From assembly GCA_023267535.1 (NCBI GenBank), contig JAHFNC010000004.1, forward strand, positions 3,757-67,756: 64,000 bases of DNA, written 5' to 3'. Of the stretch, positions 3,715 through 63,849 are shown piece after piece (within the stretch, counting starts at the first letter, position 1; the number at the start of each line of letters is the position of its first letter). The position numbers and the translations under genes are program-made. The notes below the pieces were generated by a model. The model was not told the origin of the DNA and did no database searches. It saw only the letters and a program-made list of their open reading frames with translations. Source of the DNA: a bacterium (GTDB lineage Bacteria; Patescibacteriota; Minisyncoccia; Phycocordibacterales; UBA5272).

Positions 3715-3717
3715 TTT

Positions 3718-4839: not shown

Positions 4840-4860
4840 AAGTGCTATAATGTCAAGATT

Positions 4861-7182: not shown

Positions 7183-7200
7183 TTTTTCTTACTCAAAAAG

Positions 7201-11200: not shown

Positions 11201-11263
11201 ATACTCATTTTAGCATAAAACAATAAATCTTTCATTTACGCAAGAGTGATGACTTAAAAATCT

Positions 11264-11289
11264 AAAAAGCACCCGAAAGGGTGCTTTTT
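11264..11289. terminator. bidirectional rho-independent terminator hairpin
   Basis: Perfect palindrome AAAAAGCACCC-GAAA-GGGTGCTTTTT with A/T runs on both sides. Confidence 0.6.
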
Positions 11290-11382
11290 AGATTTGGCTG
11301 GCTACACTCAGTAGCTATGCAGTAACTGTATAGAGCTCTCATACGTTTCGACGCTCTCCGAGCGCCAGAACTGCGCTCGCAT

Positions 11383-34872: not shown

Positions 34873-35001
34873 AATACTTAGGAACTTGTTGCGAAGTATT
34901 TTATCCTTTTCAACTCCTCGGCTCGGAAATGTGAAAGATTACTTTTCCACTTCTCTCGCTCTACGTCGTTAATAAAACAACTGAATAATCTAAAAACAAA
35001 A

Positions 35002-48824: not shown

Positions 48825-50120
48825 ATGAAGATGAGCTCTTTTCAAAAATCAATATTTTTATTTGTGACATCATTTTTTTTGATGGCTAATGTCTATGGAG
48901 CAACAGTAGATGAAATGAAAGCAAGCATCGATGATATAACTCAAAAAATACAAACTCTTGATAAAGAAATAGCTCAGTACAATAAACAAATAAGCCAAAC
49001 TCAAGGACAAGCTAAGACGTTGAAACAAGCGATTACTAATCTAGAAGTTAGGCGTGCTGCTTTACTTAAGGAAATAGATAAGACTAAATTAAATATTACT
49101 AAAACTGAAGATGATATATCTAAAACACAATCAAAAATTTCTGTAACTCAACAAAAAATAAATAATAACAATCTTTCGTTGGCTGAAATTATAAGGGGAA
49201 TTAATCAACAGGAAAATTCAGCCCCACCTATGCTGGGAATACTAGAAAAGAACAGTAGTATTTCTTCTGCTTTAGATGTTGTTAAAAGAAGCACTGATGT
49301 AAGTAATGCCGTAAATGAAAAAATTAGAAATCTACAGGATGCTAAAGTTGATTTAAGCAACACTAAACAAGAATTTGAGGTGCATAAGAAACAGCTTATT
49401 GACCTTAATAAAAATCTTTCTGACCAAAAACAATTAGTTGAACAAACTAAAGCTGATAAGAATCAATTGCTTTCTGAAACTAAAAATAAAGAAAGCGAAT
49501 ACCAAAAACTTTTAGCCGACAGAAAACAAAAGAAGGATCAAATGGAATCTGAATTAGGAGACATCGAATCGAAATTAACAGCTGCTGTTGATTTAAGTAA
49601 ACTTCCATCCTATGGAAGTGGAGCTCTTCATTATCCTGTTGATGTTGTAAAAATTACCCAGTACTTCGGTAACACTCCATTTGCTACCAAGAACCCACAA
49701 GTATATAACGGTATGGGACATAACGGTGTAGATTTTGGAACACATGTCGGAACCGTTGTGTATTCCGCAGCCGATGGCATTGTAGCTGGTACAGGAAACA
49801 CAGACGCTGGTTGTGTTGGCGTATCTTATGGAAAATGGGTTCTAATCCGTCACAACAACGGATTGTCTACTTTATACGCTCACTTATCAGTTATAGATGT
49901 AACAGCAGGTCAATCGGTTACAACGCATCAAAGAATTGCGCTATCTGGCAATACTGGTTACAGTACTGGTCCTCATGTTCACTTTACGGTATACGCTTCT
50001 TCAGCTGTTCATATAACAAGTCCAACAGAATATAAAAGTAAAGTTTGTGGAACTTATATGATAATGCCTATTGCTCCACGAGATGCTTACCTTAATCCTT
50101 TAACTTATTTGCCTCAATAG
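48825..50120 (+). CDS. M23 family metallopeptidase with N-terminal coiled coil (EnvC-like)
   Basis: Signal peptide, long coiled coil, LytM motifs 'HNGVDFG…', 'ALSGNTGYSTGPHVHF'. Confidence 0.8.
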   Translation: MKMSSFQKSIFLFVTSFFLMANVYGATVDEMKASIDDITQKIQTLDKEIAQYNKQISQTQGQAKTLKQAITNLEVRRAALLKEIDKTKLNITKTEDDISKTQSKISVTQQKINNNNLSLAEIIRGINQQENSAPPMLGILEKNSSISSALDVVKRSTDVSNAVNEKIRNLQDAKVDLSNTKQEFEVHKKQLIDLNKNLSDQKQLVEQTKADKNQLLSETKNKESEYQKLLADRKQKKDQMESELGDIESKLTAAVDLSKLPSYGSGALHYPVDVVKITQYFGNTPFATKNPQVYNGMGHNGVDFGTHVGTVVYSAADGIVAGTGNTDAGCVGVSYGKWVLIRHNNGLSTLYAHLSVIDVTAGQSVTTHQRIALSGNTGYSTGPHVHFTVYASSAVHITSPTEYKSKVCGTYMIMPIAPRDAYLNPLTYLPQ

Positions 50121-50145
50121 TAAGGGGATACATACTACCGAGATT

Positions 50146-50241
50146 ATGATAACTTTTACTATTCCGGCCTTCATATTGATAATTCTTACAGTTCTCATTA
50201 TAGGAACAATAACTGGCGCTTTGTTTATCTTGAAAAAATAA
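50146..50241 (+). CDS. 31-aa hydrophobic peptide (speculative)
   Basis: ATG…TAA ORF MITFTIPAFILIILTVLIIGTITGALFILKK, 17 nt downstream of a GGGGA SD-like. Confidence 0.2.
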   Translation: MITFTIPAFILIILTVLIIGTITGALFILKK

Positions 50242-50299
50242 AATCATAACTAGTAAGATAACCTAAAATGATACATAATAACGCTTTTTATTATATAGA

Positions 50300-50408
50300 G
50301 TCGTAAAGTACCGTTGTAAGACATTTTAGGGATCTTAATGTCTTACAACGGCTACAATCTTTTACGACAATACATAATAAGAGTTTTTGTTATGTATTGT
50401 CGTAAAAG
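50300..50408. repeat. compound palindromic element (two overlapping perfect hairpins)
   Basis: Hairpin 1 has a 15-bp perfect stem (50311-50325/50337-50351) plus an outer GTCGTAAAG/CTTT(T)ACGAC stem. Hairpin 2 has a 19-bp perfect stem (50359-50377/50390-50408). They share segment 50359-50368. Confidence 0.5.
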
Positions 50409-50543
50409 ATATATTGTGCGACATTGCCTATATAAATCCCCCGATACGAAAACCTTGAAAACTAGACAACTTTACTTAGCGTCATAAATAACATTTTAAA
50501 ATAATTTACAAACAAGCTTTCTCTTACCCTTTCAATCGTCAGA

Positions 50544-51305
50544 CTAATTACTAGAATTCTGATTCCTCCATTCATATAACACCACCGCCGTTGCTACTGA
50601 CGCATTCAAAGACTCACACAATGGATTTGTTTTGATTGATATCTTAAAATCACACATTTCAAGTGTTTTAAGTCTTATACCAGACCCCTCTTTACCTATA
50701 ACCAAAACTGTAGGACTATCAAATTTTGTTTTATTTAATTCTGTGTCACCGTCGCCAGCTAAACCATAAATCCAAAATTGTTTTTCCTTTAACTTTTCAA
50801 GTGTATTGTTTATATTTCCAATTCTGACAATTGGTATAGCAAAGTTCATGCCAGAAGCTGTCTTGATTACCGTTGTAGTTACTTGTGTTTGATCATGCTC
50901 AGGCATAAGAATTGCATCGGCTCCGAAAGCGACAGCACTACGAATTATAGCTCCGACATTATGAGGATCTTCTAATTCATCAAGCAACACGAAAAGTGGA
51001 TTACCCTCTTTGGTTTTTATTTTTTCTAAAATAAAATCTAAATCTGAATACAAAGATTTATTGTTAAGTAATGCACACACACCTTGGTGTAAAACTTCTT
51101 TCCCTGACATACTTTCTATCTCACTTCCTGTAACTACTTCATAAGAAATTTTATTACTCTGAACAAGGCTAATTATTTCTGGATTACTCTCTGATTGTTT
51201 GGTTAGATATAATTTTTCTATTATATGACTATTATCTCGCTTTTGAGCAAAAATAGCCTCTTTTAAAGGGTTTTTGCCACATAAATAGACTTTATTGGTG
51301 TTCAT
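50544..51305 (-). CDS. SpoU/TrmH-family RNA 2'-O-methyltransferase (RlmB-like)
   Basis: 'LLDELEDPHNVGAIIRSAVAFGADAILMP', N-terminal substrate-binding domain. Confidence 0.8.
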   Translation of the reverse strand: MNTNKVYLCGKNPLKEAIFAQKRDNSHIIEKLYLTKQSESNPEIISLVQSNKISYEVVTGSEIESMSGKEVLHQGVCALLNNKSLYSDLDFILEKIKTKEGNPLFVLLDELEDPHNVGAIIRSAVAFGADAILMPEHDQTQVTTTVIKTASGMNFAIPIVRIGNINNTLEKLKEKQFWIYGLAGDGDTELNKTKFDSPTVLVIGKEGSGIRLKTLEMCDFKISIKTNPLCESLNASVATAVVLYEWRNQNSSN

Positions 51306-51322
51306 AGTGTGGATATTATAAC

Positions 51323-51349
51323 AAAAAATCCCCTATTTTGGGGATTTTT
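51323..51349. terminator. rho-independent terminator
   Basis: AAAATCCCC-TATTTT-GGGGATTTT. Confidence 0.6.
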
Positions 51350-51365
51350 ATATTGTTTTGAAAAT

Positions 51366-51782
51366 TTATCTGAATTGAGGTGTGGTGGTTGCTGTATTTG
51401 TTTTTGGTTTTGTCTGCTTTACAGTTTTACTTTTTACGCTTACCTCTGCTTTTTTTGATTCTACTTTTTTAGCGATTACAGATTTTTTAACCTCTCCGTT
51501 CCCACGAATAGCTGTTGACGATGCTTTCATTTCAACATTCTTTTTAGTCTCTGCTATTTTTTCTGTTGAAGTAGCACTTCCTTTCCATTTTATGGTGCTT
51601 GTAGCAACTGGATGAAAAGCTTTCACTACTGGTTTTTTAATTTCTTTTTTTACTTCCTTCTTATTCTTAACTATCGTACTGCCTGTATTTTGTCCGAGAG
51701 TCTGTGCGAAAGAAGATAAAGGGAACAAAGCTAGCGTTCCAACTATAATTGATGTTTGAATTATTTTTTTCTTACTAATCAT
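51366..51782 (-). CDS. secreted Lys/Thr-rich hypothetical protein
   Basis: 138 aa; signal peptide; low-complexity K/T/S-rich. Confidence 0.45.
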   Translation of the reverse strand: MISKKKIIQTSIIVGTLALFPLSSFAQTLGQNTGSTIVKNKKEVKKEIKKPVVKAFHPVATSTIKWKGSATSTEKIAETKKNVEMKASSTAIRGNGEVKKSVIAKKVESKKAEVSVKSKTVKQTKPKTNTATTTPQFR

Positions 51783-51910
51783 AAATTTACAAATTTGCGT
51801 TTGTTATTAACTATTAAATACATTAGCAGGGACTACAAAAATTGTGGCCTAAGACCCGCTTATTTAATAATATATGAAAAATGGCTTTTTTATTGCAGTT
51901 ATCCCCAAAT

Positions 51911-52759
51911 TTAAACAATATATAGATCTTGATTAAAAGCACCAAGCCCAACGTTTTTACCGCCACCGTTTAAGATGGTTTCAAACGGGCGACAAAAGAT
52001 ACAACCCTCTTCTCCTCTTGGACAATTAAATCCTCCTCCTGTAACCCCCTTTTCTCTTGCTTCTTTTACCTTAATGGCAACTTCCATAACATCTCTACGC
52101 GCTTCATCTTTATCTGGTAATTCTTTTTCAACAATCTTATCGCTATCTAAATACCAATATGAAGCCTTAGACACTTTTCTTTTTTGTAAAGCATTACACA
52201 ATAAAAGGTATATAGGTAACTGTAATGATTTTTCATTTTCTTCATTCTTTCCAGTTTTAAAATCAATTATATGAAGAGAGTCTGTTTTTGGTAAATATTC
52301 TATCCAGTCTATAAGACCATTTAATATTAAATTATCATCTTCGCTTAAATAAAAATTAGGATTCATTTTTTCTTGCGGAAGTTTTATTATTTTATTTCCT
52401 AAAAATCTTGGATTATTAATTACTGTTTTTATCATTTCAATACCTCTCTTTTTATAATCTTCCTCTTCTTCTTTTGATTTGAATCCACCTTTCTCGCCAG
52501 TTACTTTTTCCCATTCTTTTTCGAAATCATCTAACAAATTACGATTCAAACGAACATCTGACGGGAATTTTGCTAACCCTTCAAGCACTTCGTGCACTGC
52601 CACACCTAAAGATAAGGCAGGGGTAACTATATTCATCTTTCTTCCAGTTTTAGGATCTTTGTAAATATTTCGTAAATAATAAAGACGAGGACATTTAAGA
52701 AAATCCCCCATCGATGAGTGTGACACCCAAACTGCTTTATATTTATCAGGTAAAGCCAT
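51911..52759 (-). CDS. Cas4/AddB-like PD-(D/E)xK nuclease with Fe-S cysteine cluster
   Basis: N-terminal Cys ('FLKCPRLYYL'), 'IIDFKTGK' nuclease motif, C-terminal 'CPRGEEGCIFC'. Confidence 0.65.
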   Translation of the reverse strand: MALPDKYKAVWVSHSSMGDFLKCPRLYYLRNIYKDPKTGRKMNIVTPALSLGVAVHEVLEGLAKFPSDVRLNRNLLDDFEKEWEKVTGEKGGFKSKEEEEDYKKRGIEMIKTVINNPRFLGNKIIKLPQEKMNPNFYLSEDDNLILNGLIDWIEYLPKTDSLHIIDFKTGKNEENEKSLQLPIYLLLCNALQKRKVSKASYWYLDSDKIVEKELPDKDEARRDVMEVAIKVKEAREKGVTGGGFNCPRGEEGCIFCRPFETILNGGGKNVGLGAFNQDLYIV

Positions 52760-52782
52760 TATAATTTGTATTTTAACATGAA

Positions 52783-53484
52783 CTAGAAAAAGGCTTCTGT
52801 ATAAATGTTTTCTTCAGAAATACCACCGTCCCTTAATCCCTTCCACATTTCACGAACAAAAGAAATTGACCCACAAATAAAAAATTCTTTATTTCTAATT
52901 TCGTTATTAATATGATTAATAATTTCTTTAGCATCTATCCTTCCCTTTATAAAAAAATTATCTAAATCACTCTCTTGTGTAATAAAATATTTAACCATAA
53001 AGTTATTATGTGAAGATGAAAAATAATCAAATTCATTTTTAAAAACAATATCTGAAATATTTTTATTACTATAAAATAAATACATATTTCTTTTAGAATT
53101 ATTATTTAAATGATGTGTAATCTGGCTTTTAAAAGGAGTGATTCCCATGCCTCCTGCTACAAATACTAAATCTGTTTCTTTATTTTCTGTATAAAAAAAT
53201 CCATACGGATTGGAAGAAACAACTTCGTCTCCAATTTTTAAATCATTCAATTTAGAAGAAAATTCTCCTACTTTTTTTATTGTTATGCTAAATGTATTAT
53301 CATCAATTTTATCTGACACACTATATGCTTTCCCCTCTTTGATTTCTGTGTCTGGAAAAAAAATAGTAATAAACTGCCCGGGAATAAAAGAGGTTTTTTC
53401 TTGACTATATAATTTAAGAGTAAAAATATTATTACCCCTATCTTCTTTATCTATTACTTTTAACTTTGTTTTATTTCCTTCCAT
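52783..53484 (-). CDS. FAD/NAD(P)-binding oxidoreductase (ferredoxin-NADP reductase-like)
   Basis: 'PGQFITIFFP', 'KAYSVS', 'VAGGMGITPF'. Confidence 0.7.
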   Translation of the reverse strand: MEGNKTKLKVIDKEDRGNNIFTLKLYSQEKTSFIPGQFITIFFPDTEIKEGKAYSVSDKIDDNTFSITIKKVGEFSSKLNDLKIGDEVVSSNPYGFFYTENKETDLVFVAGGMGITPFKSQITHHLNNNSKRNMYLFYSNKNISDIVFKNEFDYFSSSHNNFMVKYFITQESDLDNFFIKGRIDAKEIINHINNEIRNKEFFICGSISFVREMWKGLRDGGISEENIYTEAFF

Positions 53485-53905
53485 AATTTTCTTCGTAATC
53501 TTTTATTGCTTCACGTAATGCCAAATGACCAAGTACCGAGCAATGATATTTTCTATCGGGTAACCCTCCTAATCTATCAATAATAGCTTCTGGCGTAATG
53601 TGTTTAGCTTTAGAAATTTCCATACCGTCATTTTCTAATACCATTGTAGACATCATAGAAGTAGAAGCAATCGCCGAAGCACAACCAAATGTTCTCCATT
53701 TACATTCATAAATATTTTTCTTATCTTTGTCTATCTTTATCCAAACCACCATCATGTCTCCACAAGCTGGGCTTCCAACAATTCCAATACCATCGGCTTC
53801 GTAATTACTTTCATCTAAAAGAATGTTTCGCGGACTCAAAAAATGATCTTTAACAACGTCGCTGTATAACCAATTATTTACATCACAAATTTGTTTATCG
53901 TTCAT
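53471..53905 (-). CDS. iscU: Fe-S cluster scaffold NifU/IscU
   Basis: 'GSPACGDMMVVWIKI…CKWRTFGCASAIASTSMMSTMV'. Confidence 0.85.
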   Translation of the reverse strand: MNDKQICDVNNWLYSDVVKDHFLSPRNILLDESNYEADGIGIVGSPACGDMMVVWIKIDKDKKNIYECKWRTFGCASAIASTSMMSTMVLENDGMEISKAKHITPEAIIDRLGGLPDRKYHCSVLGHLALREAIKDYEENYGRK

Positions 53906-55214
53906 ATATTTTTAAAGTAAGAGCTGACATTTGTGTTAAATCTTCAACGATTTTAGGAAAAATATTGAGGACTCTATCTATATCTTCTTTAGTTGTATGT
54001 CGGCCAAAAGAAAATCTCAAACTTCCGTGAATAAGTTTTACATCTTGTCCGATAGCTAAAAGTACATATGATGGTTTCAAATCGTTTGAGGAACAAGCCG
54101 AACCAGTAGAAACTTCTATTCCTAAATTATCTAATTTAAGAAGCATTGACTCCCCTTCTATGTAGGGAACGGTGACATGCGTAATTGATGGAGATCTAAA
54201 TTCTAGAGGAACATTAATTAAAATATTTGGAATTAATTCCTCCAATTCCTCTACAAAATATTTTTGTAGACTTTTTAATCTTTCATATTCTTCTTTTCTA
54301 TTTTCTTGTGCTTTAGTGAGCGCTAAAGAAAATCCAAAAATATTGGCAATGCTTTCTGTCCCACTTCTTAGTCCCCTCTCCTGTCCACCACCGAAAACTA
54401 TTGGGTGTAATTTAATGTCATTTCTTTTATAAAGAAGACCAATACCAGCAGGCCCATAAATTTTAGAACTATTGATAGTCATCAAATCTACACCTAAATC
54501 TTTTACATCTAAAGAAAAAAGATTCGCCGCCTGACAAGCGTCTGTATGTATTAAAGGTTTAAATGGAGTTTCATTTTTTATTCTTTCAGATAATTCTTTT
54601 ATGGGCTGTATGGTTCCAATTTCATTGTTTACGTACATTACGGAAATTAATATTGTCTTTGTGGTAATTAGAGTTAAACATTCTTCTATTTTTATTCTGC
54701 CAAAATTATCAACTGGCATAAAGCTTATTTCAAACCCTTCTTTTTCTAATTGATTAACTGCTTCTATAATTGATTTGTGTTCAATAGAAGAAATAATTAT
54801 ATGATTCCCATTTTGACGATTAGCGCGAGCAAAACCTAAAATAGCTAAATTATTTGCTTCTGTCCCTCCGCTCGTGAAGATAATTTCATTATCGTTTGAA
54901 TTAATTATTTTTGAAATATCAATTCTTGCATTTTCAATTATTCTTTTTGCTTTTCTGCCACTAGTGTGAACAGAAGAAGGGTTGCTATAATCTAATCCAA
55001 AATACGGAAGCATTGTACGAAACACCTCTTTATCAATAGGAGTGCTTGCTGCATAATCTAAATATATTCTTCTATCAGCGACGCCAGACGAGAGAAGTGA
55101 GAAAGTATTCTTTTTCACTTCCGAGTCAAGGAGCTGAAAAGGTAAACGCTCCTTAGTAGCATCCTTGTGATTCTTATCTTGTTTAACTTTACCTGATTCC
55201 GCAATATTTAACAT
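53895..55214 (-). CDS. nifS: cysteine desulfurase (NifS/IscS class V aminotransferase)
   Basis: PLP-Lys region 'TINSSKIYGPAGIGLLY', active-site 'STGSACSS'. Confidence 0.85.
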   Translation of the reverse strand: MLNIAESGKVKQDKNHKDATKERLPFQLLDSEVKKNTFSLLSSGVADRRIYLDYAASTPIDKEVFRTMLPYFGLDYSNPSSVHTSGRKAKRIIENARIDISKIINSNDNEIIFTSGGTEANNLAILGFARANRQNGNHIIISSIEHKSIIEAVNQLEKEGFEISFMPVDNFGRIKIEECLTLITTKTILISVMYVNNEIGTIQPIKELSERIKNETPFKPLIHTDACQAANLFSLDVKDLGVDLMTINSSKIYGPAGIGLLYKRNDIKLHPIVFGGGQERGLRSGTESIANIFGFSLALTKAQENRKEEYERLKSLQKYFVEELEELIPNILINVPLEFRSPSITHVTVPYIEGESMLLKLDNLGIEVSTGSACSSNDLKPSYVLLAIGQDVKLIHGSLRFSFGRHTTKEDIDRVLNIFPKIVEDLTQMSALTLKIYER

Positions 55215-55875
55215 AATTTTGTAATCCCTTTTGAAAGGATGTTAATTCTTCTTCTGAGTAAGTAATCTTATTTTTAAATTGTGGGTTTAGAATTTTAGTT
55301 GAAACAAATTTTTGTAAATAATATTTTTTTGCACCCCTTATTTCTTCCCCTATTTCTAAAACATCAGATTCCGATACTAAAGATTTAATAAGAGTTGTTC
55401 TAAATTCATAATCTATAGGCGATGACAAAAGTAAATCAATACTTTGTCGTATTTTCTCGATATCGACCGGACGAGAAACAGTTTGGCTATATTTTGAAAG
55501 TGGAGATTTTATATCCATAGCAATATAATCAACAACACCTTCACTTATAGCTTTTTTAAGAACACTCGGATTTGTACCGTTTGAATCAAGCTTTACCAAA
55601 AATCCTAATTCTTTTATTTTTTTAATAAATGAAATTAAATCATTGTGCATTGTCGGTTCACCGCCGGTTATAACCACACCATCTAACAACCCAACTCTCG
55701 TTTTTAAAAAATCCATTACTTCTTCTTCGTTTATTCTAGTTTCCACTGTCTCATCGACCAATTCTGGATTATGACAATAAGGACAACGGAAGTTACATCC
55801 AATGGTGTATAAAATACAAGCTGTTTTTCCTGGATAATCAATTAGAGTAAATTTTTCTAATCCTCCGAATATCAT
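55189..55875 (-). CDS. nrdG: anaerobic ribonucleotide reductase activating protein (radical SAM)
   Basis: 'CNFRCPYCHNPE', 'GVVITGGEPT'. Confidence 0.85.
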   Translation of the reverse strand: MIFGGLEKFTLIDYPGKTACILYTIGCNFRCPYCHNPELVDETVETRINEEEVMDFLKTRVGLLDGVVITGGEPTMHNDLISFIKKIKELGFLVKLDSNGTNPSVLKKAISEGVVDYIAMDIKSPLSKYSQTVSRPVDIEKIRQSIDLLLSSPIDYEFRTTLIKSLVSESDVLEIGEEIRGAKKYYLQKFVSTKILNPQFKNKITYSEEELTSFQKGLQNYVKYCGIR

Positions 55876-58037
55876 TTTTGAATTACTAATGGAGACTCTA
55901 TTAATTTTGACTCAATAATATTGTGCTCATACATTTCTCGGCAATCAAATTCAGCTCGTTTACCTTCATTCCATTGACTCACTGGACGAATATAACCCAC
56001 TATTCTTGAATAAACTTCGCATTCATTATTGCAAGTTGGACATAAATGTTTTTCACCATTTATATACCCATGAGAAGGACAGACGCTGAAAGTTGGGGTT
56101 AGCGTAAAGTATGGCAATTTAAAATTCTCACAAATCTTTTTGACAAGCACAGGAACAGATGATGGGTCAGCAACTCTTTCTCCTAAGAAAAGATGCATAA
56201 CTGTTCCACCGGTGTATTTTGTTTGCAAACCATCTTGAATTTCTAAAGTTTCAAAAATATCTTTTGAAAAATTAACTGGTAAATGAGAAGAATTAGTGTA
56301 ATAAGGATTGGCTTTTTTATTATTATAATCGTCTTCATTAGCAACAAGTATGTCAGGGAAAGCTTTTTTGTCATTTAATGCAAAACGATAGGCAGTCCCC
56401 TCTCCTGGTGTTGCTTCTAGATTAAATAAATTATCTGTCTCTTTTTGATATTGCACTAATCTTTCACGCATAAAATCCAATACGTCTGAAGCAAAAGCTC
56501 TCCCTTTTACAGTACCAATATTTTCTCCAAGTAAATTAAGAGAAGCTTCGTTGGTTCCAATCAAGCCAATGGTAGAGAAATGATTTTTCCAATATTCACC
56601 ATAGGACTCTTTTATTTTTCTTAAATAGAATTTTGTATATGGATATAGATTGGCGTTAGTTAATCTTTCTAACATTTTTCTTTTAATCTCCAAGCTTTCT
56701 TTGGCAATATCCATTTGCAAAGCCAGCGAGTCGTAAAATTCTTTTTTAGCTTTTCTTATGTCTTTCGGAAATTTCTTGCTAGCTTTGTAAGCAAGACGTG
56801 GAAGATTTATGGTTACCACACCAACTGAGCCAGTTAAAGCGTTTGCACCAAACAATCCTCCTCCACGCCTATCTAATTCAGCGACGTCTAATCTCAAACG
56901 ACAACACATTGATCTTGTGTCTTCCGGCTTCATATCTGAACTAACAAAATTACTAAAATACGGAATACCATATTTAGCAGTTATTTCCCAAAGACCTTTT
57001 AGGTTAGGATTATTCCATTCAAAATCTTTGGTGACATTCACTGTTGGAATTGGAAAAGTAAAGACTCTACCTGAGGCGTCCCCTTCATACATAACTTCAA
57101 AGAGAGCTTTGTTAAACATGTTCATCTCTCTTTGAAATTCTTTGTATGTTTCAACTTGAGGTTTACCGCCGATAATTACCTTTGTGTCTTTAAAATTTGC
57201 CGAGGGTGTTAAATCAAGAGTGATGTTTGAAAATGGAGTTTGAAATCCAACTCTGGTTGGTACATTCATATTAAAGATGAATTCTTGAAGCCCTTGCTTA
57301 ACCTCATCAAAGGTAAGTCCATCATAACGAATAAACGGTGCAAGAAGTGTATCAAAATTAGAAAAAGCAATGGCGCCAGCTGCCTCACCTTGAAGCGTGT
57401 ACATAAAGTTGACTGCTTGCCCCAAAGCGGTGCGAAAATGCTTAGGAGGGGCAGATTCTACCTTACCAACTACCCCCTTGAACCCTTCAGTAAGTAAATC
57501 CATTAAATCCCAACCAACACAGTAAACAGAAATAAGACCTAAATCGTGAATATGTATATCTGTTTTCTCATAGGCATCTCTTATTTCCTTGGGATATATC
57601 TTATTTAACCAGTAAGTCTTACTAATTTCACCAAAAACATAGTTATTTAACCCTTGCAAGGAATATTCCATGTTACTGTTTTCTTTCACTTGCCAATCAC
57701 TTCTATCCAAATAATTATCAACCATGCCAAGTGACATAGAAGTAGCAAAAGCGCGAAGTTCAGCATGTTGCTTTCTGTATAGAATATAGGCTTTAGCTGT
57801 TTCTTTGTATTGAGAACGCATCAAAACTAACTCCACCACATCTTGAATATCTTCAACAGTTGGCTCGTTTCCGACTATATTTTTGTCCACTATAGAAATA
57901 ACCTTTTTTGATAGTATTTCTGCCTCCTTCGCATCAAATTCTCCAGTAGCTTTACCTGCTTTGACTATTGCTATGGTAATTTTTTTATAGTCAAAGGCTA
58001 CTTTGGCACCATTTCTTTTGATAATGAATTTTGGCAT
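55872..58037 (-). CDS. nrdD: anaerobic ribonucleoside-triphosphate reductase
   Basis: N-terminal ATP-cone, C-terminal zinc ribbon 'CPTCNNEC' and glycyl-radical 'RIVGYIRPV'. Confidence 0.9.
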   Translation of the reverse strand: MPKFIIKRNGAKVAFDYKKITIAIVKAGKATGEFDAKEAEILSKKVISIVDKNIVGNEPTVEDIQDVVELVLMRSQYKETAKAYILYRKQHAELRAFATSMSLGMVDNYLDRSDWQVKENSNMEYSLQGLNNYVFGEISKTYWLNKIYPKEIRDAYEKTDIHIHDLGLISVYCVGWDLMDLLTEGFKGVVGKVESAPPKHFRTALGQAVNFMYTLQGEAAGAIAFSNFDTLLAPFIRYDGLTFDEVKQGLQEFIFNMNVPTRVGFQTPFSNITLDLTPSANFKDTKVIIGGKPQVETYKEFQREMNMFNKALFEVMYEGDASGRVFTFPIPTVNVTKDFEWNNPNLKGLWEITAKYGIPYFSNFVSSDMKPEDTRSMCCRLRLDVAELDRRGGGLFGANALTGSVGVVTINLPRLAYKASKKFPKDIRKAKKEFYDSLALQMDIAKESLEIKRKMLERLTNANLYPYTKFYLRKIKESYGEYWKNHFSTIGLIGTNEASLNLLGENIGTVKGRAFASDVLDFMRERLVQYQKETDNLFNLEATPGEGTAYRFALNDKKAFPDILVANEDDYNNKKANPYYTNSSHLPVNFSKDIFETLEIQDGLQTKYTGGTVMHLFLGERVADPSSVPVLVKKICENFKLPYFTLTPTFSVCPSHGYINGEKHLCPTCNNECEVYSRIVGYIRPVSQWNEGKRAEFDCREMYEHNIIESKLIESPLVIQK

Positions 58038-58116
58038 ATTTTTGTGGTTTTTTGTTAATTTTGGTGGTTAATATTTTCATCTTAAGCCCTGTTGATAAGA
58101 TGCGCAATAGAACAAC

Positions 58117-58125
58117 TGTGGATAT
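58117..58125 (-). promoter_or_regulatory. DnaA-box-like motif (TGTGGATAT)
   Basis: Reverse complement ATATCCACA has 8/9 identity to TTATCCACA; lies in the AT-rich nrdD upstream region. Confidence 0.3.
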
Positions 58126-58173
58126 AAAAAGTCCTTATTTTACAAGGTTTTTTTGGAAAATAAAATATTTTAG

Positions 58174-58182
58174 TTATCCACA
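58174..58182 (+). promoter_or_regulatory. consensus DnaA box TTATCCACA
   Basis: Exact 9-mer in the AT-rich 348-bp divergent intergenic region. Confidence 0.35.
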
Positions 58183-58385
58183 GTTCCGTTTTTAAAATGA
58201 TTGTGTTTTAGCAAAAATTGTAAATCTCTTTTTCCATATTTTTGATTGAATTTTTATAAAAAAATAATTTAATTTTTAAAATTATAAATTTATATATGCA
58301 AATGATTCGCATTTGTATCGACACTAGACTTTATTTCAAAAAAAAGTTAGATTAATTAAAGTTTAGTTCTTATGAGGTCATTCCA

Positions 58386-58880
58386 ATGACACAACTGATT
58401 ACAAAAATAAACATTGCTCATCTAGCGTCGCTTGCAAAAATTCCCAAAAAAGAATTACCAATTTCTTCACTCAAGAATAAATCAGCTCCCCTTCCATTTG
58501 ACGCAGAAAAAAGAGAGTCTGTCATCCGTGCACTTTTTCGTGTAAGAAATTTTTGCACTGAAGAGTTAGGAAGAGGAACTTTAATCTTTAATGAAAAAAT
58601 GTTGAACATCGGACTGCAATTCGCAAATTTATCACTTCATCATCTCAAACAAAACCAAAATGAGGATGATATTCTTCTTGAAAATTTTTTGGATGAATAT
58701 AAATACATACTTAAGAACTTGCGAATGATTGATGTGGAAAAAGTAAGTGACGCTATCCCCTTCTGGAAAACAGGTGCGAGCCGCGCAGAATTTAGGCGCA
58801 GCGCAAATGTTTCTGTTGGCGGTAAAGCACATCCGACTTTTCTTCTTTTTCTTTTACCACGCACATTACAAGAGCTGTAA
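58386..58880 (+). CDS. hypothetical protein
   Basis: 164 aa; no motif recognised; terminator follows. Confidence 0.45.
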   Translation: MTQLITKINIAHLASLAKIPKKELPISSLKNKSAPLPFDAEKRESVIRALFRVRNFCTEELGRGTLIFNEKMLNIGLQFANLSLHHLKQNQNEDDILLENFLDEYKYILKNLRMIDVEKVSDAIPFWKTGASRAEFRRSANVSVGGKAHPTFLLFLLPRTLQEL

Positions 58881-58884
58881 AACT

Positions 58885-58916
58885 AAACGCGACAACAAGT
58901 CGCGTTTTATTTTTTA
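58885..58916. terminator. bidirectional terminator between convergent genes
   Basis: AAACGCGAC-AACAA-GTCGCGTTT plus T-run. Confidence 0.6.
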
Positions 58917-61900
58917 TATAATCTCATTAATCAAATCATCTTCAAAAGCAATTATCCCCTTATAACTCTTATCATAATTAGAAACATCTGGAAAATCTAA
59001 GTTTACTATTTTTTTGTATACGGCTTCTATTAATTTCTTTACTCTCTCTATTTCTGCTTCATTTATATCTAATGGTAATTCAATTATTTTTCCTTCATCA
59101 TTTTCTTCTACAAATTGTAGACTTAAATTTTTTACTGAAAACTTGTTGTAAGAAGAGCTGTTTTCTAAAAGAAGTTTATATATAATTAATTGTTGTCGAT
59201 ATTTATGTAATTTTATTTTTGTGTCATCATCTTTTCCTTCCCAAGAGGAAAAAGATTTTCCTGTTTTAAAATCTATAACTTCATAGAAATTATTAACTAC
59301 TCGTAAAAAATCTATCTTACCCGTCAAATGAGCACTGTTAATAATTACTCCTTCACTCTTCATATCAACTTCTATTTTGTCATCGTCTTTAAAAGATTTA
59401 ATTTTTTCATCATAATATTTTTTAAGAACAATTTCTCCCCTATCTTTCATAAACTTATAATCAGAAATATTTAATCTGGAACGCGATAATATAAAATCAA
59501 ATTTAGATAAAATGTGTGAGAGTTTTGGTTTCTCACCAGCGTTGTATTTTGGGTACACAATCATTTCTTCTATCGCTTTGTGTATTGCTGAGCCATAAGC
59601 ACCTGAGGCGTTCATCGGCTGTGGAAAATGAAGTAAATTTTGTTCAACAAAAAATATTGGTCCACCATTTTTAATATCTAAAAAATTATTCAAATGCGTT
59701 ACTGGCATTTTATAGTTCTCTACAAGTTTGGATAACATTGCCCATTCGTCTTCTTTTATTTTATTTACTCCTATTCCTAAAATACTTTCGTGGTCTTCTT
59801 CGCTTATTTCTAAAGACTTAGCATCAACCTCTTTAATTAAATCTTGCGGTAAGTAACGCAACATCTCTTCATGACCACTTATGTGTAGTGTATGTTTAGC
59901 ACGAGTAATAGCCACGAAAAACAATCTAATAAAATCATCTTCTTCGTCTCCAGCTGGATTTATTAATTGAGAAAGAGCTGATGGAATCGGTGCTTTGTTG
60001 ACCATGTTTCCCCTTGTCCAAGGTTTATCATGAGCATTTATAATAAACACTTCTTCAAACTCAAGACCCTTAGCAGCATGAGCGGTCATTAATTGTATTG
60101 AAAATTTATTTCTAGTAAATAATGATTCACTGATAAGAGGAATGTTATTATCTTTATGCATCTTAACAAATTGCGTCACATCGGAAGCTGTAATTGTCTC
60201 TCCTTTCTTCCACTCACGCAGAGCGTCAATAAAAGTCTTAAGTGAAGCCAAAAAATAAACATAAGTAGCTGGAGTGTTTTTTAATTTTTCTTTTGAGAAA
60301 TAAAATTCCTTGAAATTACTTTTCTCTATAAACTTTTCAATCAAATTTTCAAGTGGCAAACTTTTAGCCTCCACAGATAAATCAGTAAGAAGTTCATAAA
60401 TTTTGTGTAATTTTTCATCCTCTGATATTTTGAGAGCTTCTATCCAAGATATATTTTTTGTCTTAGCGTTTACAGCAACATTAAAAATTTCTTTATGACT
60501 TAAATTTAAAAATTTATAAGATAAAATCTCTGGTAACAGATAATCTTTATTATTTTCGTAATTTAAAACCGAAGACACATATTCACAAACAATAATGAGT
60601 TGTCTTATATGTTCTTCATCAAAAACATTCGCCTTCTTAATGTATTCATAAGGAATAGACAATTTATCAAGATACGGAAGTATAGCTTGTAAATCTTTAT
60701 GATTACGAGAAAGAATGGCTATTTCTTTTGGATCTACTCCATCATCCAATACTTTTTTTATTTTTCTAGAAACATCAGAATATTCTTCTACCTTAGAATT
60801 ATATTTAATGATTTCTATTTTCCCGTTTGGTAGATTTTTATTTTCTGATTTTAGTTCTTTAACAATATCCTCAAATCTATTTTCCAATCTAATTTTCCCT
60901 TTGGTGATTATTTGTCTGGCAAAAGAAACAACATCTTTAGTAGAGCGATAATTTTTATCAAGCACTATTGTCTGAACATCTTTATAAGTCTTTTCTCTAA
61001 ATTCCATAATATGAGACACTTCGGCTCCTTGGAATTTATAAATTGCTTGATCGTCATCTCCCACAACACAAACATTGGGATGCCCCTCATGAATCGGGCT
61101 TGAAGTGATGGCTTTAACTAAACTCATCTGAGCAAGATTAGTATCTTGAAATTCATCAATCATAATATATTGGTATTGTTCTTCAAGTTCGTTTCTTAAA
61201 ACATTTTTATTACGCAATATATGAGCCACTTCAATAATGGTGTCATCGTAATCATAAAGACCCAGCTCATGCATTTTGTTTTCATACAATTCGTAAATTT
61301 CAGCTACTGCTAAAATTTTATCGTAATTGTAACTCTCTTTTAAAATTGGAGTACTTTCATCAACCGCTAAATATTTCTTCTTGAAATCCGCTATCGGCTC
61401 AGTCTTTCCAATTACAAAAGATTCTTCGACGGCATTTTTTAAGGCTAGAGAAATAAATTTACTGGTTGTGGTCTTTAATTTATCTAGTGAAGAAATAATG
61501 TTATTAAAAACTTCTAACTTCTTTACATTTAATCTTTCTACTGGCCATAAAGCAAAAACTTCATTTATATCTTTATAATCTTCTTTGATAGAAGTGACTA
61601 TCGTTTTATATTCTTCCGGAGTGTATCCACCGGATTTTATGTGTTTTATTCTGTCTGTCACATCTTTTAAATAAGCAAACCCAAGTTCTGGATGTTTAGC
61701 ACTTAGCGGATGTTTATGTAGAAGGGACTTAAAAATTTCTGTAATTATTTCGGCACGAGTAATATCATTTGCTTGAGAAAAATTTGTAGCGTTGTAAAAA
61801 TATTCTGGGTATCGTCCAATAACGTAATTACAAAAAGCGTGGAAGGTAAAAATATTAACCCTAAAGGCATCTTCCTTTATCAAAGAAGATAATCTTTCTC

Positions 61901-62168
61901 GCATATTAATAGCTCCGTTTTCTGTAAAGGTTAAGCACAAAATGTTTGATGGTGTAGCCAAGCCTAATTTCAAGATGTTAGCGACACGAAGTGATAAAAG
62001 CTCTGTCTTTCCACTCCCCGGCCCAGCGATTACCATTACAGGACCATCAGTTGTATCTACAGCAAGCTTCTGCTCTTTATTTAATTTCTGATAACGAGAT
62101 TCAAATTCTGCATTCTTTGATTTTGATTCATTATTTATTCTCATACTTAGAAAGTGCCTCCTTAGCAT
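58914..62168 (-). CDS. UvrD/PcrA-type helicase fused to C-terminal PD-(D/E)xK nuclease (AddA-like)
   Basis: 1084 aa; 'AGPGSGKTE' Walker A; UvrD helicase motifs; C-terminal 'VIDFKTGK' nuclease motif. Confidence 0.8.
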   Translation of the reverse strand: MLRRHFLSMRINNESKSKNAEFESRYQKLNKEQKLAVDTTDGPVMVIAGPGSGKTELLSLRVANILKLGLATPSNILCLTFTENGAINMRERLSSLIKEDAFRVNIFTFHAFCNYVIGRYPEYFYNATNFSQANDITRAEIITEIFKSLLHKHPLSAKHPELGFAYLKDVTDRIKHIKSGGYTPEEYKTIVTSIKEDYKDINEVFALWPVERLNVKKLEVFNNIISSLDKLKTTTSKFISLALKNAVEESFVIGKTEPIADFKKKYLAVDESTPILKESYNYDKILAVAEIYELYENKMHELGLYDYDDTIIEVAHILRNKNVLRNELEEQYQYIMIDEFQDTNLAQMSLVKAITSSPIHEGHPNVCVVGDDDQAIYKFQGAEVSHIMEFREKTYKDVQTIVLDKNYRSTKDVVSFARQIITKGKIRLENRFEDIVKELKSENKNLPNGKIEIIKYNSKVEEYSDVSRKIKKVLDDGVDPKEIAILSRNHKDLQAILPYLDKLSIPYEYIKKANVFDEEHIRQLIIVCEYVSSVLNYENNKDYLLPEILSYKFLNLSHKEIFNVAVNAKTKNISWIEALKISEDEKLHKIYELLTDLSVEAKSLPLENLIEKFIEKSNFKEFYFSKEKLKNTPATYVYFLASLKTFIDALREWKKGETITASDVTQFVKMHKDNNIPLISESLFTRNKFSIQLMTAHAAKGLEFEEVFIINAHDKPWTRGNMVNKAPIPSALSQLINPAGDEEDDFIRLFFVAITRAKHTLHISGHEEMLRYLPQDLIKEVDAKSLEISEEDHESILGIGVNKIKEDEWAMLSKLVENYKMPVTHLNNFLDIKNGGPIFFVEQNLLHFPQPMNASGAYGSAIHKAIEEMIVYPKYNAGEKPKLSHILSKFDFILSRSRLNISDYKFMKDRGEIVLKKYYDEKIKSFKDDDKIEVDMKSEGVIINSAHLTGKIDFLRVVNNFYEVIDFKTGKSFSSWEGKDDDTKIKLHKYRQQLIIYKLLLENSSSYNKFSVKNLSLQFVEENDEGKIIELPLDINEAEIERVKKLIEAVYKKIVNLDFPDVSNYDKSYKGIIAFEDDLINEII

Positions 62169-62739
62169 CCGTCAAAGCTTTTGAATATTTCAAAACAAGA
62201 GAGTGGTCGTTACCTAATCTTTCCTTAAACAAAGATAAAAGTTCTTCATAAAACCAAGAAACCTTATCTAAATTGCCAACCGCTCTTTTAAAAACATTGT
62301 GATTATTTTCTTCTAAATCATAAATTAAACTACCGAGGTTATGAGTTTTATCAGCTACACTTATAAGAATACTTTTATCATTAGCGTTACGAAGAGTTTC
62401 TAGATATGCTTTCTTTCTATCCATCCAAGGCATTTGCATATCATCTGGTAAATTGGCATCTAGTGGCTCAGTCACTCCTTTTACAAGTAGGGCTACAGTT
62501 TCTCCGCAATCTTTTTTTAAATCTTCATAAGAATAATCTGGCACATCTTCCAATGCGTCATGCATAATCCCAGCGATTAAAATATCTTCATCATCTGTTA
62601 TTTCACTCAATAAAATCATGGTCGAAACTAAGTGGGAGATATACGGTGTTCTGACAAAGTCTTTACGTATTTGGTTTTGATGTAGTCTGGATGATAAATT
62701 TATTGCGTATTGTAAGCGAGTTGTAAGATTCATATTCAA
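62131..62739 (-). CDS. HD-domain phosphohydrolase
   Basis: 'HLVSTMILLSEI…IMHDALED' (H…HD…D); overlaps the helicase start by 38 nt. Confidence 0.75.
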   Translation of the reverse strand: MNMNLTTRLQYAINLSSRLHQNQIRKDFVRTPYISHLVSTMILLSEITDDEDILIAGIMHDALEDVPDYSYEDLKKDCGETVALLVKGVTEPLDANLPDDMQMPWMDRKKAYLETLRNANDKSILISVADKTHNLGSLIYDLEENNHNVFKRAVGNLDKVSWFYEELLSLFKERLGNDHSLVLKYSKALTDAKEALSKYENK

Positions 62740-62757
62740 TGATTATAGCAAGAAATC

Positions 62758-62782
62758 AAAAGCGCGCCTAAGGCGCGCTTTT
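62758..62782. terminator. rho-independent terminator
   Basis: AAAAGCGCGCC-TA-AGGCGCGCTTTT. Confidence 0.6.
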
Positions 62783-62918
62783 AGCTATTTTTCTACAACC
62801 TTCTTTGGTTTCTTTTTTTCTTTTCTTTCTCTGTGATTTCCTTTTGCCATATTTTTTATTTGGTTATATTTTAAGTATAGCTAAATTAAAAAAGTAAAGA
62901 AGTGGACAACGTATAAAG

Positions 62919-63278
62919 TTAATTTTTGCCACATAATTTAGATAATCTTCTTCCGGACGTAATGGCTTCTTCTTCATTGTTAAAATAAATTCTATTTTCC
63001 TCTTTTATTCTGTCAGCAGCACTACACCAAGAAAATGTGTAGGTAGCTCCATTTTTGCTGGCAAAAATCTTTTGGTTTTCACTTAGGTTAGCGCTAATTT
63101 CTCCTATATTTTCTAGGTATTTTAAATCTTTTTTATGAATATTGTTTTCATAGTAAATAAATATAGAAAAACCAAAAAAAGTTATGGTAACTACGCTGAT
63201 TATTACCAAATCAAATAAATGTAGTCTACTGTTGATTTTTTTAAGATATTCTTGTATAATACTACTCATTAATTTCAT
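62919..63278 (-). CDS. membrane-anchored protein with Ada-like zinc-binding (Sunset-type) C-terminal domain
   Basis: N-terminal TM; C-terminal 'TYTFSWCSAADRIKEENRIYFNNEEEAITSGRRLSKLCGKN' fits the Ada_Zn_binding pattern (Y.F…C……I…N…F.S.EEA…G.R..K.C). Confidence 0.45.
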   Translation of the reverse strand: MKLMSSIIQEYLKKINSRLHLFDLVIISVVTITFFGFSIFIYYENNIHKKDLKYLENIGEISANLSENQKIFASKNGATYTFSWCSAADRIKEENRIYFNNEEEAITSGRRLSKLCGKN

Positions 63279-63294
63279 TTAATTATTATAAACT

Positions 63295-63570
63295 ATGGCA
63301 ACAAGAAAAGCCGCTGGTTCGGCAAAAAACCTAAAAGATAGTAAGCCAAAATACCTAGGTACAAAGCTCTACGCTGGAGAAACTGCAATGGCTGGTAATA
63401 TTATCGTTCGTCAAAGAGGAACAAAAATAATGGCCGGCAAAAATGTTGGTGTTGGAAAAGATCACACTCTTTACGCACTAAAGACAGGTAAAATTAAATT
63501 CACTGAAAAAAGAAAAGTTGGATTTGATGGATCTTGGAAGAAAAAGAAAGTAGCAAACATTGAGCTATAA
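63295..63570 (+). CDS. rpmA: 50S ribosomal protein L27
   Basis: '[37 protein letters not shown]'. Confidence 0.9.
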
Positions 63571-63574
63571 AATT

Positions 63575-63602
63575 AAAACTCACCATTATAATGGTGAGTT
63601 TT
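63575..63602. terminator. rho-independent terminator
   Basis: AAAACTCACCATTATAATGGTGAGTTTT. Confidence 0.6.
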
Positions 63603-63849
63603 AATTTATGTCTTTTAATCCTCCTAAATTTTTTGCATTCACGTACCCTAAGCCCTTTAAAATTTTTGTAGCTACCCCTGCTCTTCCACCCGCCATACAA
63701 TAACAGCCAATATCTTCGTCTTTTTTAATTTTGGAAATTTCTCCCAAGTCTCCTTTTATAATTTGCTCTATTGGAATATTTATTGCTCCTTCTGCATGTT
63801 TACTTTTATATTCCTCTTTTGTTCTGACGTCAATTAAAATTTGGCTCAT
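63601..63849 (-). CDS. rhodanese-like sulfurtransferase domain protein
   Basis: 'ILIDVRTKEEY…GAINIP…CYCMAGGRAGVA' (active-site Cys loop). Confidence 0.8.
   Translation of the reverse strand: MSQILIDVRTKEEYKSKHAEGAINIPIEQIIKGDLGEISKIKKDEDIGCYCMAGGRAGVATKILKGLGYVNAKNLGGLKDIN

Follow-up and report, generated by a model that had tools for sequence, protein, structure and literature searches.

In a 64-kb stretch of bacterial DNA (contig JAHFNC010000004.1; hereafter the window, whose positions all coordinates follow unless another locus is named), two strong hairpins lie between the convergent genes for an M23 peptidase and a SpoU/TrmH-like protein. We consider it likely that a Candidatus Saccharibacteria chromosome has its dif locus here, together with palindromes derived from dif, a judgement that does not extend to what the hairpins do. 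It draws on features that can be seen directly: the anatomy of the element, its conservation, its position at a replication terminus, prophage junctions at the same site in relatives, and compensatory changes that maintain the stems. A preliminary description of this DNA had listed a recombination site among several candidates for the hairpins, and that suggestion has fared well: the 3' arm of hairpin 2 coincides with the left arm of a 28-bp site of the Xer (dif) type. The nearest named relatives of the window are Candidatus Saccharibacteria metagenome-assembled genomes (MAGs). The site and its parts are:

50397-50424, + strand: putative dif (Xer recombination) site, proposed from its conservation, the switch in skew and gene orientation, the prophage junctions, xer genes nearby in other loci, and its single copy.
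50397-50407, + strand: left arm of dif, TTGTCGTAAAA, part of the 28-mer and coincident with the 3' arm of hairpin 2.
50408-50413, + strand: central region of dif, GATATA, part of the 28-mer.
50414-50424, + strand: right arm of dif, TTGTGCGACAT, part of the 28-mer.

The site is made up of the 3' arm of hairpin 2 and the next 18 bp, and it forms an 11-6-11 imperfect palindrome in which 11 of 14 symmetric positions agree, as read from the sequence. Sites of the dif class are about 28 bp long, with 11-bp inverted arms around a centre of 6-8 bp, and positions 50397-50424 have this build. The consensus of the conserved block is ATGTCGTAAAA-GATATA-TTGTGCGACAT, with arms that are symmetric at 9 of 11 positions; written as a search form, the Saccharibacteria 28-mer is ATGTCGTAAAAGATATATTGTGCGACAT.

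We scanned metagenomes with the exact 21-mer GTAAAAGATATATTGTGCGAC, which corresponds to positions 50402-50422. It was present in at least 120 contigs, with one match in each and no contig matched twice among the matches listed. These contigs include some of 973, 914, 830, 775 and 609 kb, and ten exceed 300 kb among the matches listed. Oriented on the motif and collapsed, the listed matches yielded 114 distinct loci, which are labelled here with an L and a number. Across the 114 loci, positions outside the 21-mer are conserved only from -5 to -1 (A T G T C; the upstream G in 102, T in 97 and C in 109 of 114) and from +21 to +23 (R T T), and the conserved unit is therefore about 28 bp. Beyond this 28-29-bp block the flanks are unrelated, and conservation ends sharply. 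The dif site is single-copy in the 64-kb window and single-copy at the level of contigs, which are not closed genomes. In L010, a MAG with 70% SpoU identity, 27 nt (GTCGTAAAAGATATATTGTGCGACATT) are 100% conserved relative to the window, and L009 retains the same 27 nt without the hairpins. Sites in L155 and L157/L158, which were reached by another route described below, carry between 1 and 4 substitutions; a scan for exact matches therefore misses members of the family.

Genes that converge, with G in excess of C on the top strand to the left, are a sign of a replication terminus. In the window, the cumulative G-C curve peaks at 49,839 (plateau 49,308-50,437) and the cumulative A-T curve at 50,515; read from left to right, GC skew turns from positive to negative at about 50 kb. 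Genes lie mostly on the + strand over 11,955-50,120 and mostly on the - strand over 50,544-63,278. The converging genes and the excess of G over C on the left top strand therefore indicate a replication terminus. The same arrangement recurs in the 37 loci that have at least 2 kb on both sides of the site: in 35 of them the + strand carries most of the coding to the left, in 31 the - strand carries most of it to the right, and in 30 the left side has the higher GC skew. The loci share synteny in the left flank (mraY-ftsW-murG, optionally with gltX and M23 or ftsQ), whereas the genes of the right flank differ from locus to locus and are not conserved. Convergence thus appears to be a property of the site rather than of one gene pair. 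In the parts of one published survey that we draw on, dif sites are predicted from palindromic structure together with position at the shift point of GC skew (PMC3025954). A terminus location is what we find here in the skew maxima of the window, in its gene convergence and in the orientation counts from the 37 loci.

A further line of evidence comes from viruses. The 21-mer is present in 18 IMG/VR viral contigs (L137-L154), where it lies at host-prophage junctions. In L150, murG' and an ftsQ-like gene are followed by site 1 (TTGTCGTAAAAGATATATTGTGCGACAC), an element of 5.4 kb (for example, coordinates 2059-7518 of that locus), site 2 (TGTACAAAAAAGATATATTGTGCGACAT), the start of a second (tandem) element and then host genes on the - strand. 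The first part of the element carries a 78-aa open-reading frame (ORF) and three coat-like ORFs of 45-58 aa, after which come an ORF of 417 aa, whose linker is rich in Gly, Ser and Asn, and a membrane ORF of 130 aa. These are followed by a 246-aa Zot-like ATPase (PF05707; phrog_197), an 88-aa ORF and, at the end, a 306-aa G2P-type Rep (PF23343) and DUF2726. No recombinase gene is encoded in elements of the L150 type. Site 2 is identical to site 1 in the centre and right arm and has a degenerate left arm. Two direct sites lie 5.1-5.9 kb apart in L149, L150, L152, L153 and L154; the two-site pattern is also seen in the metagenome loci L105 and L136, and in L046 the sites are 2.2 kb apart. Two sites around an element that lacks a recombinase are a signature of Xer-dependent integration, as practised by integrative mobile elements exploiting Xer (IMEX), whose use of dif leaves an intact site and a modified copy; all eight of these loci display that outcome. 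The arrangement shows, as far as sequence can, that filamentous phages of Saccharibacteria would integrate in the manner of Vibrio and Xanthomonas inoviruses. Five loci have + strand genes on the right of the site, and three of them (L056, L105 and L109) share phage flanks of the L150 type. The integrase-less filamentous prophages belong to other Saccharibacteria; the window holds no prophage.

The link to a recombinase is less direct. A 319-aa ORF of the Xer family lies near the site in L100, at -1478 to -519 from the motif, and matches the XerC, XerD and XerA models with E values of about 1e-65. It is the only adjacent recombinase-like ORF, and most loci have no adjoining xer. Homologues of the L100 protein number in the thousands, some of them in contigs of 0.8-1 Mb, and we fetched the DNA around two of these homologues independently of the motif. 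In L155, the site (3186-3213, 1 mismatch) is about 790 bp from xer (4001-4960); in L157/L158, it occupies 2096-2123 and has 4 mismatches, and its distance to xer (4001-4963) is about 1.9 kb. The subclade of L100, L155 and L157/L158 thus has xer 0.5-1.9 kb from the site. From this circumstantial association we infer that one or more Xer recombinases may act on the 28-mer.

Several observations weigh against calling the site dif. A motif search found no xer gene in the 64-kb window, and the Xer-like protein of L100 scores under the NCBI equivalog cut-offs for XerC and XerD. The right-flank skew, averaged over loci, is approximately zero (-0.005), and the conserved left synteny (mraY-ftsW-murG and onward) might be enough to account for the + strand genes on that side. 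Skew and gene orientation, moreover, are not independent of each other and are seen over a 64-kb window only. Finally, the 28-mer fails the canonical consensus test (ATAA-N6-TTATG core), and searches with the canonical XerCD patterns CATAA-N6-TTATG and ATAATnTAnATTATGTnAAnT gave results no better than chance and did not find the site. Because the 28-mer fails this consensus, we file it as a divergent dif and not as a canonical XerCD dif. An initial idea, that the CATAA-N12-TTATG core of hairpin 2 was itself dif, proved wrong; this inner palindrome is the part that is not conserved.

If the site is dif, it would work as dif/Xer systems do elsewhere. One or more Xer tyrosine recombinases, activated by FtsK at division, would bind the arms and exchange strands across the centre, and this recombination would resolve chromosome dimers at the replication terminus. 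Integrase-less filamentous phages would hijack the same Xer reaction.

We next consider the hairpins. Hairpin 1 has a perfect 15-bp stem, 50311-50325 against 50337-50351, closed by a loop of 11 nt, and hairpin 2 has a perfect 19-bp stem, 50359-50377 against 50390-50408; the latter extends to 50357-50380 and 50387-50410, 24 nt at 96% complementarity. The two perfect palindromes of the preliminary description, with stems of 15 and 19 bp, are thus present as claimed. Compared with dinucleotide shuffles, the 161-nt stretch folds with z = -10.2 on the + strand and -10.4 on the - strand, and 0 of 200 shuffles were as good. The earlier proposal that a shared decamer makes two extended pairings mutually exclusive is formally correct under constrained folding. 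An outer pairing of GTCGTAAAG (50300-50308) with CTTTTACGAC (50359-50368) exists and competes with hairpin 2 for the decamer. When all positions are free, however, the minimum-energy fold is hairpin 1 plus hairpin 2, at -61.3 kcal/mol; the extended form of hairpin 1, at -42.8 kcal/mol, appears only when the 3' arm of hairpin 2 is withheld. The quoted sequences and recurring motif fragments could also all be located, with TACATAATAA at 50272 and 50371 and GACATT at 50320 and 50420. These fragments are part of a 37-nt direct repeat, whose copies at 50271-50307 and 50370-50406 are 81% identical.

The origin of the palindromes becomes clearer when the spacer is matched with the two arms of dif (L = GTCGTAAAAG, R = TGTGCGACAT). 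This yields three dif-like sites, A, B and C, and the following parts:

50300-50325, + strand: site A, a diverged direct copy of dif, found by arm matching, with GTCGTAAAG (L-like, 50300-50308), TACCG and TTGTAAGACATT (R-like, 50314-50325).
50337-50368, - strand: site B, an inverted dif-like copy, found by arm matching, with AATGTCTTACAA (R'), CGGCTACAAT and CTTTTACGAC (L').
50397-50424, + strand: site C, found by arm matching, which is the putative dif itself.
50311-50351, no strand assigned: hairpin 1, the R-like arm of site A against the R' arm of site B (15 bp, 11-nt loop), with compensatory changes at 6 of 15 pairs.
50357-50410, no strand assigned: hairpin 2, the L' arm of site B against the left arm of dif, around an inner palindrome (50369-50398) that varies between lineages.
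50271-50307, + strand: degenerate direct repeat (81%) of 50370-50406, which copies the inner palindrome and the left arm of dif.

In the window, the central region and right arm of site A have diverged from dif. The clearest case is L099, in which site A reads GTCGTAAAA-CACTAC-TGTGCGACATT, with arms nearly identical to those of dif, and site B reads AATGTCGCACA-GTAGCCGGAT-CTTTTACAAC. To judge from the 37-nt repeat, site A and the sequence upstream of it derive from a tandem duplication of about 99 bp of the dif region. Our analysis indicates that the compound palindrome consists of diverged copies of dif, one direct and one inverted, with a variable palindrome, and that it arose by duplication. 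Duplication of dif would have given site A in direct and site B in inverted orientation, with C as dif, and B could then pair with either A or C. This alternative pairing, or apparent switch, exists because A, B and C share a left half-site.

Strong hairpins that involve the left arm are confined to the window, L010, L092, L099, L043 and L047, with a weaker one in L058. The window, L010, L092 and L099 form one clade by the identity of their M23 C-termini (69-87% between lineages); the hairpins are maintained in these four related lineages, and two more distant loci have analogous hairpins. At least 8 arm positions are paired in 15 of 102 loci, against 3 of 102 controls. Pairing of the right arm with downstream DNA showed no such excess (15 loci, 20 controls). 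Between L010 and the window the outer parts are identical, hairpin 1 has compensatory changes, and the inner sequence of hairpin 2 is different yet paired. The inner part of hairpin 2 likewise differs in sequence and remains paired in L092, L099, L043 and L047.

We aligned the four related bearers and scored covariation, an indicative comparison of related sequences and not a formal test. Over the 31 stem pairs, pairing is kept in 95.2% of cells, compared with 28-48% in controls with slid partners, and 10 pairs have double changes (6 in hairpin 1 and 4 in hairpin 2), a number that 0 of 500 shuffles reached. In three lineages the R-like arm of A and the R' arm of B have drifted from the right arm of dif and are still complementary to each other. 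That complementarity is kept, and identity to dif is not, argues for selection on a single-stranded fold, whether RNA, single-stranded DNA or a cruciform; the drift also argues against selection on Xer binding to those copies. Most relatives have no such fold. The hairpins are missing from L082, L088 and L101, which belong to the same clade, and from L009, which shares the gene order of L010; in L082, the DNA from the small ORF to dif forms no hairpin whatever. Three of the four mismatches in the stems are A.C on the M23 strand. These absences and mismatches count against the transcription-barrier role considered next.

Three long, perfect or near-perfect palindromes in the window (11258-11295, 34864-34909 and 63570-63607), with an A-tract/stem/T-tract layout, have the look of normal bidirectional terminators and served as standards. 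The hairpins of the compound element may, as RNA structure, stop or insulate transcription of the dcw-gltX-M23-small-ORF block before it reaches dif, a role that we favour among those considered, at somewhat less than even odds. The hairpins sit after the last ORF of the left gene block, as a barrier would. The earlier statement that neither hairpin is followed by a clean U-tract is fair, but TCTTTT occurs within 2-8 nt 3' of hairpin 1 at 6 of 6 hairpin loci, and hairpin 2 passes a loose terminator scan with 4 G-C pairs and the tail GATATATTGT. In many other lineages an ordinary terminator lies 20-50 nt to the left of dif (for example in L025, L030, L033, L053 and L110). Against a barrier, the polarity of hairpin 2, with T in the 5' flank and A in the 3' flank, is reversed relative to the bidirectional terminators of this genome, and a barrier leaves the conserved left half-site of A unaccounted for. 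Alternatively, the triple arrangement could be a working device in which a hairpin, cruciform or single-stranded DNA fold sequesters the left arm of dif or acts as a decoy for Xer, and so controls when Xer can act or keeps IMEX from integrating at dif. We think this unlikely; were it true, it would amount to a DNA-structure switch on chromosome dimer resolution.

Could the element be explained without a dif locus that gave rise to its own palindromes? We assign a low probability to a scar or miniature of an Xer-dependent mobile element of the CTXphi type, in which single-stranded integration of a folded attP (two inverted dif-like sites) gave a hybrid site, A, at one end and B, a loop and a rebuilt dif, C, at the other, so that A-B-loop-C was left after the phage was lost. 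The hairpins would then be remnants of a folded single-stranded DNA attachment site, or would still serve as one. The order and orientation of A (direct), B (inverted) and C (direct) fit that product. A well-kept left arm and a diverged right arm in A, beside a perfect C, fit it too. A:B and B:C can each fold with L':L and R':R stems on either side of an unequal central bubble, and Xer-dependent inoviruses do use this site in the phylum. Yet the window is without phage genes, and the inoviruses that we found have an attP of the double-strand type, with a degenerate left arm and no inverted partner. No compound-like hairpins were found beside the phage attP in L150, and a scan of viral contigs with the core of hairpin 1 gave no matches. 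The core of hairpin 2 gave one viral match, at 5257-5292 of L016 (IMGVR_UViG_3300037453_000521), where the half-sites ACAATACATAA-N14-TTATGTATTGT lie in the 3' part of a 369-aa integrase-like ORF; since the inner part of hairpin 2 is not conserved, we judge this match to be chance. Searches of phage records with blastn returned only chance matches of 26-30 nt. A neutral relic should also decay, whereas these stems have been kept by compensatory changes among lineages whose M23 C-termini are 69-87% identical, and loss of the phage genome from between inverted repeats needs an extra, ad hoc step.

It is very unlikely, in our estimate, that the hairpins are only terminators of converging operons and that the 28-mer is some other protein-binding or regulatory site that overlaps them by accident. 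The location between convergent genes suits this explanation, and so do the scan result for hairpin 2, the TCTTTT after hairpin 1 and the canonical terminators left of the site in other loci. It leaves unexplained, however, the prophage junctions with their duplicated centre and right arm, the adjacency of xer, the symmetry of the 11-6-11 layout, the presence of just one copy in contigs of nearly 1 Mb, and hairpin arms that copy half-sites of the 28-mer itself. Still less probable is a stand-alone structured RNA of about 125 nt, with the 28-mer as the core of a three-way junction closed by GUCGUA (50300-50305) and UGCGAC (50418-50423). The fold is very stable, closing stem included, covariation affects both stems, and the stem mismatches are mostly G.U-compatible on the - strand. 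But hairpins and closing partner are missing outside one clade while the 28-mer is invariant, conservation stops abruptly at 28-29 bp, and an RNA gene does not explain the prophage junctions. Five promoter-like sites were found where 5.1 are expected, and none stands out. At Rfam gathering thresholds the window has only a tRNA-Gln; at E-value thresholds there are matches to generic miRNA-like hairpins, which lie far below the cut-off and indicate no Rfam family. The riboswitch, attenuator or 6S-like RNA of the preliminary description fails on similar grounds, given the convergent 3' ends, the lack of an Rfam match, the 28-29 bp of conservation and the rarity of the hairpins; for a riboswitch or attenuator in particular, no proper U-tract terminator depends on the alternative pairing. 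A dispersed repeat, either a miniature inverted-repeat transposable element or a repetitive extragenic palindrome, had also been put forward, and the palindromic, hairpin-rich architecture with its internal repeats would suit it. This idea is effectively refuted: neither hairpin arm has a second copy in the 64-kb window, even at 3 mismatches; relatives have one copy per contig, always at the same locus, among the matches listed; and contigs of the same species are identical at the locus.

The surroundings of the putative dif contain two further features:

50147-50243, + strand: 31-aa hydrophobic ORF (MITFTIPAF..., MITFTIPAFILIILTVLIIGTITGALFILKK), the last gene before the dif region, conserved in relatives.
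50431-50441, + strand: motif of the TATATAAATCCCCC type (TATAAT-N-CCCC), lying to the right of dif and shared within the window's clade, as read from the flanks.

The M23 gene ends at 50120 and the SpoU/TrmH-like gene at 50544, so the convergent gap reported earlier as about 420 bp does measure 423 bp, but it is not empty, because the 31-codon ORF lies within it. The MxTFTIPAF... peptide is kept in L009, L010, L082, L088, L092 and L101, the last with two tandem copies, and the ORF after the M23 gene is probably a real small membrane protein missed by gene callers. L010 has the same small ORF 3' of M23, followed by a recognisable compound element. When orthologous spacers were sought through SpoU, contigs of the same species proved 100% identical, so that no covariation could be obtained from them. 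Relatives reached in this way (62-74% aa identity) have a different gene order, and the next SpoU relatives (70-74%) have an ordinary GC-rich bidirectional terminator at the convergence point.

Motifs beside dif are specific to clades. TATAAT-N2-9-CCCC(C/T) lies to the right of dif in the window, L009, L010, L018, L082, L088, L092, L099 and L101. Another large clade (for example L024, L026, L035, L045, L046, L115 and L126) has CCCCT-N6-GACGTAT-N5-AATCATCT 20-65 nt to the left, and the same clade has GTTAAGTCTAT to the right. Such motifs could be accessory sequences or promoters. Between dif and the point of gene convergence, L010 (12825-18810) and L009 (13434-20084) carry a block of about 6 kb with a 182-aa ORF, a MarR-family regulator, a YknX-like adaptor and an RND pump. 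The window has no such block, so gene content around the terminus is variable. No convincing second dif-like site bounds this block in L009 or L010. In L121 and L036, M23 and GltX lie across the 21-mer, inverted, at +310 to +1593 and +2649 to +4737 from the motif; the site can therefore be turned round with respect to the genes that normally adjoin it.

Hardly any work has been done on the chromosome biology of Saccharibacteria and other Patescibacteria, which are ultra-small epibionts. A dif defined by sequence would provide a terminus landmark for closing and orienting Saccharibacteria genomes, a target for genetic tools (Xer-mediated excision or integration of markers), and a simple marker for Xer-dependent prophages and islands. 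The shared site also ties many IMG/VR contigs to hosts. We know of no precedent for the long-term upkeep of hairpins built from dif half-sites, and their maintenance could bear on the control of access to dif.

Sites for XerCD have been predicted in 16 phyla by Kono et al., and TM7 is not named in the parts of that study that we draw on (PMC3025954). The portions of Shaiber et al. that we consulted report prophages in oral TM7 and describe no dif site (PMC7739484). Among the papers searched, none treats dif or Xer of Saccharibacteria or Patescibacteria, and none contains the sequence of the 28-mer. On its sequence, the site is best filed as a divergent dif variant in a phylum without a previously described dif. 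Like the dif/XerCD sites of E. coli and B. subtilis, it has 28 bp with 11-bp inverted arms and a 6-bp centre, a single copy per chromosome-sized contig, a position at a GC-skew shift and gene convergence, and conservation across the taxon. It differs in lacking the canonical ATAA-N6-TTAT core, in its more symmetric consensus arms, in an Xer-like protein that falls under the XerC and XerD equivalog thresholds, and in the extra dif-like copies that form the hairpins. The recombinase gene lies close to dif in XerS and XerH systems. The one subclade with xer near the site resembles them in this respect, whereas most loci, and the window, have no adjoining xer. In being divergent and taxon-specific, the site is like difSL/XerS, difH/XerH, archaeal dif/XerA and the Legionella dif/XerL (PMC9765430). 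Saccharibacteria might run an Xer/dif system of their own, perhaps with a single recombinase, on a non-canonical site.

The route to recognition was also that taken for Legionella, in which dif was found via the mobile element LME-1, which mimics dif and forms a modified downstream site (PMC9765430). In the prophage-bearing relatives, an intact site and a copy with a degenerate arm surround a Zot/G2P element, as with other IMEX (the VGJphi and CTXphi inoviruses, the gonococcal genetic island and LME-1); in the window, by contrast, there is no prophage, and dif is flanked on its opposite side by about 100 bp of dif-like copies that are non-coding. Plasmids of Acinetobacter carry pdif modules, in which Xer-type sites that alternate in orientation bracket gene cassettes of kilobase size. 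The alternation of A, B and C is similar, although these three sites sit on a chromosome and are separated by 11 and 30 bp. Rho-independent bidirectional terminators share with the element stable hairpins between convergent genes, compensatory changes and a U-rich run on the + strand after hairpins 1 and 2, but here the U-tract is 2-8 nt from the stem and hairpin 2 has the opposite polarity. The attP(+) of CTXphi reportedly works as a folded single-stranded hairpin, as Val et al. are said to have described in 2005. The window element, known from sequence alone, is chromosomal and has loops of 11 and 30 nt rather than about 90 nt, but it has in common with attP(+) an inverted pair of dif-like sites, A:B or B:C, that would fold into an Xer-like duplex with a central bubble.

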